A DNA stretch of 4,127 bases, from positions 1 through 4,127 of IMG/VR virus record IMGVR_UViG_2562617057_000001, one strand, 5' to 3'. Both the position numbers and the translations under genes were made by a program. The notes below the pieces were generated by a model. That model had not been told where the DNA came from. It ran no database searches and worked only from the letters and a program-made list of their open reading frames with translations. Each line of letters begins with the position of its first letter. The stretch's first letter is position 1. The DNA is from a virus. Its lineage: Duplodnaviria > Heunggongvirae > Uroviricota > Caudoviricetes. This document shows, piece after piece, positions 1 through 4,127 of this stretch.

Positions 1-746
1 ACCGGGATTTTTCCACTGTGCCGCTTCTGTGCGAAGGGGTTGTTCATGCCGTTAACCGATGAGAGATCGATACGACATCGGGTTGTCTGGGAAAGCGCGG
101 CATCAATAAGTAATGGTCGCTGGAGAAAAGCAGCCTCATCCACAAGATAAAGGGTCGTACGGTCACCACGACCGATATTATCGCCAGCCTCACCTTTGAT
201 AACCGCGCCAGTTTCAGGAAACTCAACACGCATATATGGCGCGTGCTTCTTCTCGCTCCACGAACCGCGAAACTCTACAGGTAGTGTTTCCACGAACTTG
301 CGCGCCTTCCAGAACAATGCTTTCGGGTCACCGGTGCTGTCGACGTATTCCTCTTTACGGGAGCCGAAACCGATAACCATTTCTTTGTTGAAGAGACAAA
401 GCGAGCAGGCCAGTCCGATCGCGGTCCAACTGAGCCCCATTTCACGGGATTTATCGGTAATACCATTCTCCCGATTGCTCCAGCGTTCCATAATCCAGTG
501 GATCCACTCCTCCTGCTTAGGGAAGAGTAAAAACGGAATGGTCACCGGCAGGCCATAATCAATATTACGCGGGTCCGTTGTCATGCCCCAGTCGATGATG
601 AACTGAGCCGGATTGGTACGGTAAAACTGTTTTAGTGCAGGCAATATTTCAGGATTCTGGCGAATGCGCTGTAGGCGTTCCATCCGCCATTCAAAAACCA
701 TCTGGTAATCAGGATGTTTAAAATCGAAGGGGAATGGTAACGGCAT
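1..746 (-). CDS. terL: Phage terminase large subunit, N-terminal ATPase portion (partial; 3' end lies beyond window start; codon-aligned 3..746)
   Basis: Not in the ORF track because it has no stop in the window. I translated the minus strand by hand: ATG at 746..744, 248 sense codons with no stop down to position 3 ([20 protein letters not shown]...[11 protein letters not shown]...LYLVDEAAF...[13 protein letters not shown]). Deviant Walker A-like KSREMGLS (approx 432..452) resembles lambda gpA KSARVGYS; Walker B-like LYLVDEAAF at 126..152. Start lies 2 nt after the terS stop (TAA 751..749), the canonical terS-terL coupling. Confidence 0.8.
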
Positions 747-748
747 AC

Positions 749-1303
749 TTAGCCCATCATTTTTCTATACACCTCTGCGGCCTGCTCAGGCGTTAATTTG
801 GTAATTTCTGTTCTGACTGGTCCTCCGTCAGCGCCAGTCACTTCATTTTTGACGTTGTCTTTAAACGCCTGAACAGAAACATGGCGCCCAAGCAACTCAA
901 GGTTTTTAACCTTATCAGGCCATTTGATTTTCTTCAGAAGTGCGGCGCTATCTGCGGATACCATCTCCACGACATCCATTCCTGATAGCGTTGTGCGCCA
1001 TACCTTAGGCCAGTCTTTAATGGGCTTTAGCTCACCGTTTTGCAGGAGAATGTCGAGCACATCCATCTGGTCGATTTCAACCAATCTACGAAGAACATAA
1101 GCGGCATCTATACCTACCTCTTCGTTTCGCTCGGCTTTAAGCTCAGCAATGCGCTTTGCGATATTAGCTTTTATTAGGTTTTTGCATCCTTGTACGGCGG
1201 CAGAATCCTCACTGTAACCCGCCCTGATGGCTGCTTGCGTGGCATTGAGATCTTTCAGGTACTCACGGGCAAACAGCTCTTGTTTGTCGGTGAGCTTTGC
1301 CAT
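749..1303 (-). CDS. terS: Phage terminase small subunit (Terminase_2-type, N-terminal HTH)
   Basis: 184-aa ORF. N-terminus [40 protein letters not shown] matches the conserved terminase small-subunit signature as I recall it (KQExFxxEYlxdxNAtqAaxrAGYS). GGAG Shine-Dalgarno at 1312..1315 (minus strand), 8 nt upstream of ATG 1303. Sits immediately upstream of terL. Confidence 0.85.
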
Positions 1304-1348: not shown

Positions 1349-1351
1349 TCC
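1349..1351. repeat. Target-site duplication (TCC), left flank of IS copy 1
   Basis: TCC immediately 5' of the IS left terminus (TG at 1352) and TCC again immediately 3' of the right terminus (CA ending 2661). A 3-bp duplication is expected for IS3-family elements. Confidence 0.7.
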
Positions 1352-1376
1352 TGAACCGCCCCGGGAATCCTGGAGA
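1352..1376 (+). repeat. IS left inverted repeat (IRL)
   Basis: TGAACCGCCCCGGGAATCCTGGAGA. The reverse complement of 2637..2661 is TGAACCGCCCCGGGTTTCCTGGAGA, giving 23/25 matches (mismatches at positions 15 and 16). Confidence 0.85.
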
Positions 1377-1405
1377 CTAAACTTCCTGAGAAAGAGGTAA
1401 ACAGG

Positions 1406-1732
1406 ATGACTAAAAATACTCGTTTTTCCCCCGAAGTCCGTCAACGGGCAGTCCGTATGGTTCTGGAAAGTCAGGGCGAATATGACTCACAATGGGCGAC
1501 AATTTGTTCCATTGCTCCAAAGATTGGCTGTACGCCGGAGACTCTGCGTGTCTGGGTTCGCCAGCATGAGCGGGATACCGGGGGCGGTGATGGAGGGCTC
1601 ACCACCGCTGAACGTCAGCGTCTGAAAGAGCTGGAGCGTGAAAATCGTGAACTGCGCCGCAGTAACGATATCCTTCGCCAGGCTTCCGCTTATTTTGCGA
1701 AGGCGGAGTTCGACCGCCTCTGGAAAAAATGA
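1406..1732 (+). CDS. IS3-family transposase OrfA (HTH/leucine-zipper DNA-binding subunit)
   Basis: 108-aa ORF. AGAGG Shine-Dalgarno at 1393..1397, 8 nt before the ATG. Ends WKK* on the A6 run. Heptad-like [20 protein letters not shown] is typical of IS3 OrfA. Confidence 0.9.
1724..1732 (+). promoter_or_regulatory. Putative programmed -1 ribosomal frameshift site (A6 run; orfA stop overlaps orfB ATG)
   Basis: AAAAAA at 1724..1729 occupies the last two Lys codons of orfA. TGA stop at 1730..1732 overlaps ATG 1729..1731 of orfB, which is in the -1 frame. IS3-family elements make an OrfAB fusion transposase by -1 slippage on A-rich heptamers (established for IS911, IS3, IS150). Confidence 0.6.
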
Positions 1733-2619
1733 TGCCACTGCTGGATAAGCTGCGTGAGCAGTACGGGGTCGGACCGCTATGCAGCGAACTGCATATTGCC
1801 CCGTCAACGTATTACCACTGTCAGCAACAGCGACATCATCCGGATAAACGCAGTGCCCGTGCGCAGCGCGATGACTGGCTGAAGAAAGAGATACAGCGCG
1901 TATACGATGAAAATCACAAGGTATACGGTGTGCGTAAAGTCTGGCGTCAGTTGTTACGGGAAGGCATCAGAGTGGCCAGATGCACTGTGGCACGTCTCAT
2001 GGCGGTTATGGGACTTGCCGGTGTTCTCCGGGGTAAAAAGGTCCGTACGACCATCAGCCGGAAAGCCGTTGCCGCAGGCGACCGCGTAAACCGTCAGTTC
2101 GTGGCAGAACGACCTGACCAGCTGTGGGTGGCTGATTTTACTTACGTCAGCACATGGCAGGGCTTCGTCTATGTGGCGTTCATCATTGATGTGTTTGCCG
2201 GATACATCGTGGGGTGGCGGGTCTCATCGTCCATGGAAACGACATTCGTGCTGGATGCACTGGAGCAGGCGTTATGGGCCCGTCGACCGTCCGGCACGGT
2301 CCATCACAGTGATAAAGGTTCTCAGTATGTATCGCTGGCCTACACACAGCGGCTTAAGGAAGCCGGATTACTGGCATCAACAGGAAGTACAGGCGACTCG
2401 TATGACAACGCGATGGCGGAGAGCATCAATGGTCTTTACAAAGCGGAGGTAATACACCGTAAGAGCTGGAAAAACCGTGCAGAAGTGGAACTGGCCACAC
2501 TCACGTGGGTGGACTGGTATAACAATCGACGATTGCTGGAAAGGCTGGGCCATACTCCTCCGGCAGAAGCAGAAAAAGCTTATTATGCTTCCATCGGAAA
2601 CGATGATCTGGCAGCCTGA
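1729..2619 (+). CDS. IS3-family transposase OrfB (DDE integrase/rve catalytic domain)
   Basis: 296-aa ORF in the -1 frame relative to orfA. Catalytic triad read from the translation: D136 (WVADFTY), D195 (HHSDKGSQY), E231 ([12 protein letters not shown]), spacing D-59-D-36-E, the classic DD(35)E pattern. Confidence 0.9.
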
Positions 2620-2636
2620 GTTCACAGATAAAACAC

Positions 2637-2661
2637 TCTCCAGGAAACCCGGGGCGGTTCA
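2637..2661 (-). repeat. IS right inverted repeat (IRR)
   Basis: Reverse complement matches IRL at 23/25 positions; the element ends ...GGTTCA at 2661. Confidence 0.85.
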
Positions 2662-2664
2662 TCC
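2662..2664. repeat. Target-site duplication (TCC), right flank of IS copy 1
   Basis: TCC directly abutting the IS right end, matching TCC at 1349..1351. Confidence 0.7.
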
Positions 2665-2739: not shown

Positions 2740-2952
2740 TCAGGTTGTCATTTTTTCCCTTTTCTGCCTACCTGCCCACTGTTTTGCAATGTACAGGCAG
2801 TCATCGAAAACTCGGCCTTTTCTGCTGGCTTGTGAACAACGGCGGTAATGCTCCACCGCCATGTCAGCGCCAGTCATAGCCGCGTTCTGGTCGTACCCAA
2901 GCTTTATTAACTCGGTTGTTACATTTTTATGTATGAAATCAATCGGAGTCAT
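2740..2952 (-). CDS. Hypothetical small protein (70 aa), translationally coupled to the upstream Rha-like gene
   Basis: ATG 2952..2950 overlaps the TGA stop (2951..2949) of the upstream ORF, an ATGA overlap. Same strand as the phage genes. I recognise no motif. Only a weak Shine-Dalgarno, so expression probably relies on coupling. Confidence 0.5.
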   Translation of the reverse strand: MTPIDFIHKNVTTELIKLGYDQNAAMTGADMAVEHYRRCSQASRKGRVFDDCLYIAKQWAGRQKREKMTT

Positions 2953-3386
2953 GCTGGTTTACCATCAGAGAAATCCCCCATGTCACATAGCTTGAACTGA
3001 ATCAGATCCTTCACAAGCTGCTCAGCCTTTTTAATGGCCTTCTTCTCTTTCTTCCGACGAGTCATGAGAGCGCTACCTGCTTGACCGTGCATTTCAAATG
3101 AGAACTTCTCAGCAGCCGCGACACGGTTTTGCATTTCGCTGATTGCCATATCGGTCAGGCCAGAGAAATCGAGGAGGTTAATGTCCTTCCCGCCCTCAAG
3201 CTCCGTCATGTGGTCATACACCTGCGCCTGAAGCTCATAGCTGTAGCTCATTGCCATGAGGCAAGCTTCACGCTTGGGAAAATTGCAAATATCCCTCTCC
3301 ACAACACCACCTGTTCCGTTGATATAGGTATCAGTTGCAAAAAATTTTGCAGCTGCATCCCCGAGGACCCTGGGTACTTTCTTCAT
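2949..3386 (-). CDS. Putative phage regulatory/antirepressor-like protein (Rha/Bro-N-like region); possibly the 3' remnant of a gene interrupted by IS copy 2
   Basis: 145-aa ORF from the first ATG. The segment PKREACLMAMSYSYELQAQVYDH resembles the conserved core of Rha/Bro-N/KilA-N-type phage regulator domains (recollection, low certainty). The frame stays open for 33 more codons upstream until it hits the IS junction at 3480/3481, and there is no clear Shine-Dalgarno before ATG 3386. Confidence 0.5.
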   Translation of the reverse strand: MKKVPRVLGDAAAKFFATDTYINGTGGVVERDICNFPKREACLMAMSYSYELQAQVYDHMTELEGGKDINLLDFSGLTDMAISEMQNRVAAAEKFSFEMHGQAGSALMTRRKKEKKAIKKAEQLVKDLIQFKLCDMGDFSDGKPA

Positions 3387-3480
3387 GAAACTGCGGTGTT
3401 CGAGTTTGCGATATTTCTTACAGGGGAACGCAAGCCCCTCCGCCTCCGCTTTGGATTTCCGATCAGCATTAATGTAATCC

Positions 3481-3505
3481 TGAACCGCCCCGGGAATCCT
3501 GGAGA
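3481..3505 (+). repeat. IRL of IS copy 2
   Basis: Identical to 1352..1376. Confidence 0.85.
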
Positions 3506-3534
3506 CTAAACTTCCTGAGAAAGAGGTAAACAGG

Positions 3535-3861
3535 ATGACTAAAAATACTCGTTTTTCCCCCGAAGTCCGTCAACGGGCAGTCCGTATGGTTCTGGAAAGT
3601 CAGGGCGAATATGACTCACAATGGGCGACAATTTGTTCCATTGCTCCAAAGATTGGCTGTACGCCGGAGACTCTGCGTGTCTGGGTTCGCCAGCATGAGC
3701 GGGATACCGGGGGCGGTGATGGAGGGCTCACCACCGCTGAACGTCAGCGTCTGAAAGAGCTGGAGCGTGAAAATCGTGAACTGCGCCGCAGTAACGATAT
3801 CCTTCGCCAGGCTTCCGCTTATTTTGCGAAGGCGGAGTTCGACCGCCTCTGGAAAAAATGA
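3535..3861 (+). CDS. IS3-family transposase OrfA (copy 2)
   Basis: 108-aa product identical to the 1406..1732 product. Confidence 0.9.
3853..3861 (+). promoter_or_regulatory. Putative -1 frameshift site (copy 2)
   Basis: Same A6 run and ATGA overlap as copy 1. Confidence 0.6.
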
Positions 3862-4127
3862 TGCCACTGCTGGATAAGCTGCGTGAGCAGTACGGGGTCG
3901 GACCGCTATGCAGCGAACTGCATATTGCCCCGTCAACGTATTACCACTGTCAGCAACAGCGACATCATCCGGATAAACGCAGTGCCCGTGCGCAGCGCGA
4001 TGACTGGCTGAAGAAAGAGATACAGCGCGTATACGATGAAAATCACAAGGTATACGGTGTGCGTAAAGTCTGGCGTCAGTTGTTACGGGAAGGCATCAGA
4101 GTGGCCAGATGCACTGTGGCACGTCTC
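3858..4127 (+). CDS. IS3-family transposase OrfB (copy 2), N-terminal 90 codons only; continues beyond window
   Basis: In frame with ATG 3858 to the last base of the window ([11 protein letters not shown]...TVARL); identical to the copy 1 orfB 5' region. Confidence 0.85.

Follow-up and report, generated by a model that had tools for sequence, protein, structure and literature searches.

A complete IS629 element with a TCC target duplication beside the terminase genes of a lambdoid prophage in Escherichia coli 53638

Two copies of the insertion sequence IS629, placed in direct orientation and bracketing 819 bp, are found in a short piece of lambdoid prophage DNA from Escherichia coli 53638, and this arrangement raises the question of whether the complete one (hereafter copy 1) reached its present position by itself or as one arm of a composite transposon. 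The window (i.e. the whole stretch of DNA that was analysed, 4127 bp) is the entire unplaced contig AAKB02000002.1 of assembly GCA_000167915.2; its first position falls within the gene that follows terS, and its last within the second IS629 (copy 2). The strain is an EIEC O144, available as a 4-contig TIGR assembly (PMC2974192). A contig end within an IS copy is the assembly break expected at a repeat, and the IS629 insertions explain why this 4-kb piece stayed unplaced in the draft. Our answer to the question is that, almost certainly, a single IS629 transposed alone into a 123-bp gap of the prophage, where staggered cleavage at TCC and subsequent repair left a 3-bp repeat. The features on which the argument is built are collected in Table 1.

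Table 1. Features located in the 4127-bp window, with their positions, strands and the grounds for each assignment (slashes in sequences mark junctions).
Feature	Position	Strand	Basis
Gene downstream of terS, 5' part	1-746	-	539 aa in relatives; terminase large-subunit position (L001, L150-L159); cut by contig start
terS, phage terminase small subunit	749-1303	-	Pfam Terminase_2, E=3.5e-37; RefSeq annotation of IS-free relative
Left copy of the target duplication, TCC	1349-1351	.	Direct reading; single TCC in IS-free prophages
Left inverted repeat (IRL) of copy 1	1352-1376	+	Begins with TG; 25 nt identical in 52/55 other full-length copies
orfA	1406-1732	+	108 aa; HTH_Tnp_1 DNA-binding domain, Pfam PF01527, E=6e-13
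-1 frameshift signal (predicted)	1687-1803	+	A6 run 1724-1729 directly 5' of the orfA stop, inside ALIL pseudoknot
orfB	1729-2619	+	296 aa, -1 frame relative to orfA; HTH_21 (PF13276) and rve DDE core (PF00665, E=5e-28)
Right inverted repeat (IRR) of copy 1	2637-2661	+	Terminates with CA; 25 nt identical in 47/55 other full-length copies
Right copy of the target duplication, TCC	2662-2664	.	Direct reading; single TCC in IS-free prophages
70-aa phage ORF upstream of terS	2740-2952	-	Called as a gene in L151, L154, L156-L159
198-aa phage gene, 3' portion	2949-3480	-	Split by copy 2; full CDS WP_004996416.1 in L001
Left target triplet of copy 2, TCC	3478-3480	.	IS-free prophages: TAATCC/ACCATCTCAAG
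IS629 copy 2, first 647 bp	3481-4127	+	Same orientation as copy 1; ended by contig end

Copy 1 occupies positions 1352-2661 on the + strand and constitutes a complete IS629 (IS3 family) of 1310 bp. Read directly, its left junction (1351/1352) is ...GTTAAGTTATCC/TGAACCGCCCCGGG... (in a longer reading ...GTTAAGTTATCC/TGAACCGCCCCGGGAATCCTGGAGA...) and its right junction (2661/2662) is ...CCCGGGGCGGTTCA/TCCCGTGTAGGG... (in a longer reading ...TCTCCAGGAAACCCGGGGCGGTTCA/TCCCGTGTAGGG...), which in short form amounts to TTATCC/TGAACC on the left and GGTTCA/TCCCGTG on the right. The repeat finder delimited inverted repeats of 25 nt with TG...CA termini, complementary at 23/25 positions (92%). These ends are not arbitrary: irrespective of the flanking DNA, full-length matches spanning element positions 1-1310 were found in 3043 of 5426 complete E. 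coli genomes, and the 55 full-length copies that we fetched share the same start and stop. The initial annotation, which had described a complete IS629-like element of 1310 bp with intact inverted repeats and both ORFs, is borne out in its extent, its TG and CA termini (common to the 55 copies), its repeats and its two open reading frames, orfA and orfB. Shorter variants make up 20 of the 55 full-length matches (1306 bp, n = 12; 1292 bp, n = 3; the rest 1303, 1308 or 1309 bp) and come from L004-L026 (Shigella flexneri SFBU1023, E. coli ECMA0423). Exact IS629 left ends were also encountered on short contigs labelled as Bacillota MAG, Neopoerus faecalis and Lachnospiraceae MAG (L016, L020 and L024, respectively), which most likely represent mis-binned or contaminating enterobacterial DNA and not genuine hosts.

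The identity of the element was judged against labelled copies (RefSeq-labelled, pO157 Sakai and IS1203-labelled). Copy 1 was 99.2-99.6% identical to a copy carried in RefSeq as 'IS3-like element IS629 family' (L027), 98.5-99.0% to full-length 1306-bp chromosomal copies of Shigella flexneri, 97.5% to a 1292-bp deletion variant in the same species, 96.7% to an IS1203-labelled copy (L028) and 96.2% to the IS629 of pO157 Sakai (L029), while many E. coli copies were 99.8% identical to it (~3 substitutions), the highest value among complete genomes of the species. The ISfinder threshold for isoforms lies at ~95% nucleotide identity, and the identity of copy 1 to the labelled IS629/IS1203 copies is above it. 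Judged by sequence, the pattern of identities fits a Shigella-type IS629, i.e. the 'sub-type II' that differs by 4-5% from the O157 sub-types (Rump et al., PMC3271280).

The element has close counterparts among described insertion sequences. The Shigella IS629 ('sub-type II', PMC3271280) has the same 1310 bp, TG...CA termini, 25-nt inverted repeats, orfA/orfB layout with the -1 frame and 3-bp duplication, and no functional difference separates it from copy 1. The IS1203/IS1203v and O157:H7 IS629 isoforms (sub-types I and III) share with it the architecture, the ends, the frameshift signal, the duplication of 3-4 bp and the preference for prophages (where 62% of the O157 IS629 copies are located, PMC3271280), but differ from it in sequence (96.2-96.7% nucleotide identity, 43-50 substitutions); they are the forms in which transposition and IEE-promoted excision were tested experimentally (bioRxiv 10.1101/2023.06.07.543989). 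More distantly, IS911, IS3 and IS2 produce OrfA and OrfAB by -1 frameshifting, employ a DDE transposase and move by copy-out-paste-in via a circle, as does IS629, whereas their sequences differ and the frameshift stimulator of IS629 is a pseudoknot of the ALIL type (apical loop-internal loop, RF01497). A 3-bp duplication is typical of IS911 and IS3. Copy 1 is a textbook IS629 insertion, whose biology is already known and which offers nothing novel.

The same triplet, TCC, abuts both ends of copy 1. A 3-bp match would be expected by chance at a frequency of ~1/64 (0.0165 when measured on the phage DNA of the window), a figure that is irrelevant here, since this prophage in its IS-free versions has a single TCC exactly at this place. 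We searched for such versions among complete E. coli genomes with a reconstructed empty site, in which the 300 bp preceding the IS, with TCC at their end, were joined to the 300 bp that follow the second TCC, and recovered the junction at 600/600 identity in two genomes, CFSAN029787 and VL46 (NZ_CP011416.1 and NZ_CM177010.1). In CFSAN029787 (L001) the empty site reads GTTAAGTTATCC/CGTGTAGGG, with one TCC, and the flanks depart from those of the window at 7 of 1351 and 1 of 816 bases. When the exact terS protein served as the query, ten independent loci were retrieved (among them L154, which is CFSAN029787 again), and in all ten the junction was unoccupied and the predicted ancestral sequence TTATCC/CGTGTAGG was present verbatim. 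One of these relatives (L158, GCA_900449825.1) is identical and gapless over 2167/2167 positions to the window from which the IS and one TCC have been removed. The flanking TCC is a genuine target-site duplication, as had been proposed from its occurrence on both sides of the element, and the check suggested at that time (an IS-free homologous prophage with a single TCC at the junction) has now come out positive in ten genomes.

The insertion rests on one draft assembly because no other genome searched carries it: a search with the whole window found neither insertion in complete E. coli genomes. We weighed whether the arrangement could be an assembly artefact, in which reads from several IS629 copies were mis-joined and the insertion, or its intact interior, is unreal. 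Such a reading would draw on the nature of the source (the window being a whole contig of a 4-contig draft that ends inside an IS copy), on the identity of copies 1 and 2 over all 647/647 positions of the latter and on the absence of this arrangement from complete E. coli genomes. A mis-join, however, cannot make a precise second copy of a triplet that the phage without the insertion has only once, and for this reason the junctions are no artefact; moreover, order and orientation are correct for both junctions and both phage flanks, the very OrfA and OrfB sequences found here are natural alleles of common occurrence, and the interior bases are at most a consensus. We thus consider the artefact very improbable. 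As the interior of copy 1 may be the assembler's consensus of several copies in the strain, the intactness of its two ORFs is established a little less firmly than the junctions are.

A passenger enclosed by two IS copies recalls a composite transposon, a likeness that is in this case only formal. According to this alternative, copy 1 would be one arm of an IS629-passenger-IS629 unit (or the product of homologous recombination between IS copies) and the TCC match would be due to chance; it could appeal to the presence of two identical, directly oriented copies 819 bp apart, to the TCC that also lies to the left of copy 2 (so that a TCC beside an IS629 end is not unique in the window), and to the observations that about half of the genomic IS629 copies are without a matching duplication and that rearrangements at IS629 are common (PMC3271280). 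It predicts, however, a foreign passenger and a duplication at the outer ends only, while copy 1 was found to have its own TCC on both sides and the 816-bp segment between the copies proved to belong natively beside terS in 10 IS-free genomes, the closest of which show 0-1 mismatches to it. Together with the left flank, this segment is collinear with the 10 IS-free prophages, and the two are 99.4-100% identical in eight of the nine full-length ones and 97.4% identical in the remaining L157; L153 has a 396-bp deletion within the segment, in the region of the 198-aa gene. Furthermore, once exactly the IS and one TCC are taken out, the window matches a sequence that exists in nature, that of L158, without any mismatch or gap. 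The native origin of the inter-IS segment and the separate duplication around copy 1 show that this copy did not arrive as an arm of a compound transposon, and the earlier claim that it inserted alone is upheld by the collinearity of both flanks (the 816 bp included) with IS-free prophages. The empty sites effectively refute the composite origin, to which we give even less credence than to the artefact, and no evidence contradicts a simple insertion of copy 1.

The norm for the family was derived from 48 other independent full-length insertions (with BLAST-defined ends) in representative genomes and viral contigs. An exact 3-bp repeat was present in 18 of the 48, a 4-bp repeat in two and a 5-bp repeat in one (GTTAC, an insertion in L052), compared with 0/48 in the offset-triplet control; in the literature, duplications of 3-4 bp are reported for 21 of 47 IS629 sites (Rump et al., PMC3271280). 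We rejected a general preference of IS629 for TCC because none of the 18 other 3-bp duplications among these 48 insertions consisted of this triplet. The literature describes IS629 as having no sequence-specific target.

The sites of the two copies resemble each other beyond the triplet, as the 14 nt preceding copy 2 (3467-3480) and those preceding copy 1 (1338-1351) are identical at 10/14 positions (CAGTTAAGTTATCC vs CATTAATGTAATCC). A post hoc simulation on phage DNA returned ~1e-4 for two random sites sharing a 4-mer together with >=10/14 identity, a value that overstates the significance because the 14-nt comparison window was picked after the match had been seen. It appears to us unlikely that both copies occupy TCC owing to a local target preference of IS629 (for a TWATCC-like motif or a DNA-structure cue) in combination with short-range hopping, and not by coincidence. 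Among the 48 insertions, five (from four independent loci; L008, L019, L038, L047, L119) have left flanks ending in ATC, mostly TATC, against ~0.75 expected, which could reflect a weak target bias; the excess was spotted post hoc, and the two sites of the window end in ATCC, with the register off by one relative to these flanks. We also considered a donor flank as the source of the shared TCC, by way of the 3-bp spacer of the IS circle, and rejected it because in the IS3-family mechanism this spacer does not integrate and TCC is native at both empty targets.

The OrfA protein of copy 1 recurs unchanged in at least 1000 contigs, and its OrfB does so in 68 (with multiple accessions per genome); members of the 90% protein cluster of OrfB are named 'IS629 transposase OrfB' by their sources. 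OrfB matched the NCBIfam model transpos_IS3 (NF033516) with 315.7 bits (cut-off 160), and its DDE triad is intact (D136, D195 and E231, followed by K238, i.e. K at E+7). The ALIL pseudoknot was recognised by Rfam RF01497 with 120.2 bits (gathering score 50) over model positions 1-117/117, and from the frames, which were read directly, a -1 slip at the A6 run is predicted to generate an OrfAB fusion of 404 aa. With every sequence requirement intact, it is plausible that copy 1 is still competent for transposition.

Frameshifting in the -1 direction between orfA and orfB and copy-out-paste-in transposition via a circle have been described for IS629/IS1203v and the IS3 family (bioRxiv 10.1101/2023.06.07.543989). 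If copy 1 followed the biology of its family, a -1 frameshift at the A6 run, promoted by the ALIL pseudoknot, would have given rise to the OrfAB transposase, and one end of the IS would have attacked the other on the same strand, whereupon replication would have copied out a circle with abutted ends. This circle would have integrated at the staggered 3-bp target (TCC), and repair would have yielded the direct repeat. As the donor copy would stay in place in such a process, the identical copy 2 located 819 bp away could have arisen in this manner, and either copy may descend from the other.

Copy 2 is a separate insertion into the phage, given that the DNA between the IS copies is collinear with that of IS-free prophages. 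In the uninterrupted phage its site reads TAATCC/ACCATC, and it interrupts the conserved 198-aa gene (WP_004996416.1) 65 nt after the start codon, leaving an ORF of 145 aa. A second ALIL match falls within it (3816-3932). Its exact left junction had no match in GTDB representative genomes, nor was the predicted right junction, GGTTCA/TCCACCATC, matched in viral contigs. Provided that copy 2 is a simple insertion as well, the right junction (beyond the window) is predicted to be ...GGGGCGGTTCA/TCCACCATCTCAAGACTGC, with the duplicate TCC.

The prophage genes around the two copies belong to the late region, which in IS-free relatives runs in the order holin, lysozyme, Rz-like lysis protein, 198-aa gene, 70-aa gene and terS, and continues with the 539-aa protein in the terminase large-subunit position, the portal and the head genes. 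The region matching positions 1-746 is annotated as terminase large subunit in phage records, and a Pfam search with the 248-aa N-terminal fragment encoded there retrieved no family; the same was the case for the Pfam searches with the 70-aa product and the truncated 198-aa product. Related phages have Rha-family or DUF2560 genes at the position of the 198-aa gene. Copy 1 lies antisense in what was originally the 123-bp gap between the 70-aa ORF and terS, its insertion point being 48 bp away from the terS start codon, and the ribosome-binding site is intact. The function of the late operon (packaging and head genes) is probably impaired, since copy 1 stands antisense at a distance of 48 bp from terS on its upstream side and the next gene in that direction is disrupted by copy 2. 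With one gene broken in two and a pair of antisense IS copies in the path of late transcription, the prophage probably has a packaging defect.

Insertions of IS629 into prophages are well documented as a cause of polymorphism among E. coli and Shigella strains and serve in strain typing. The present case is a strain-specific IS629 insertion, accompanied by a second one nearby, in a lambdoid prophage of EIEC 53638, and its value lies mainly in the correct annotation of this region. A different IS3-family element of 1264 bp (OrfA 100 aa, OrfB 272 aa), whose size would suit IS600, is present in L153 (GCA_900450175.1) ~42 bp from the site of copy 1 (equivalent to positions 2704-2706), where a 3-bp overlap indicates a duplication of its own. 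In view of this separate insertion, the stretch upstream of terS has been hit repeatedly by IS elements.
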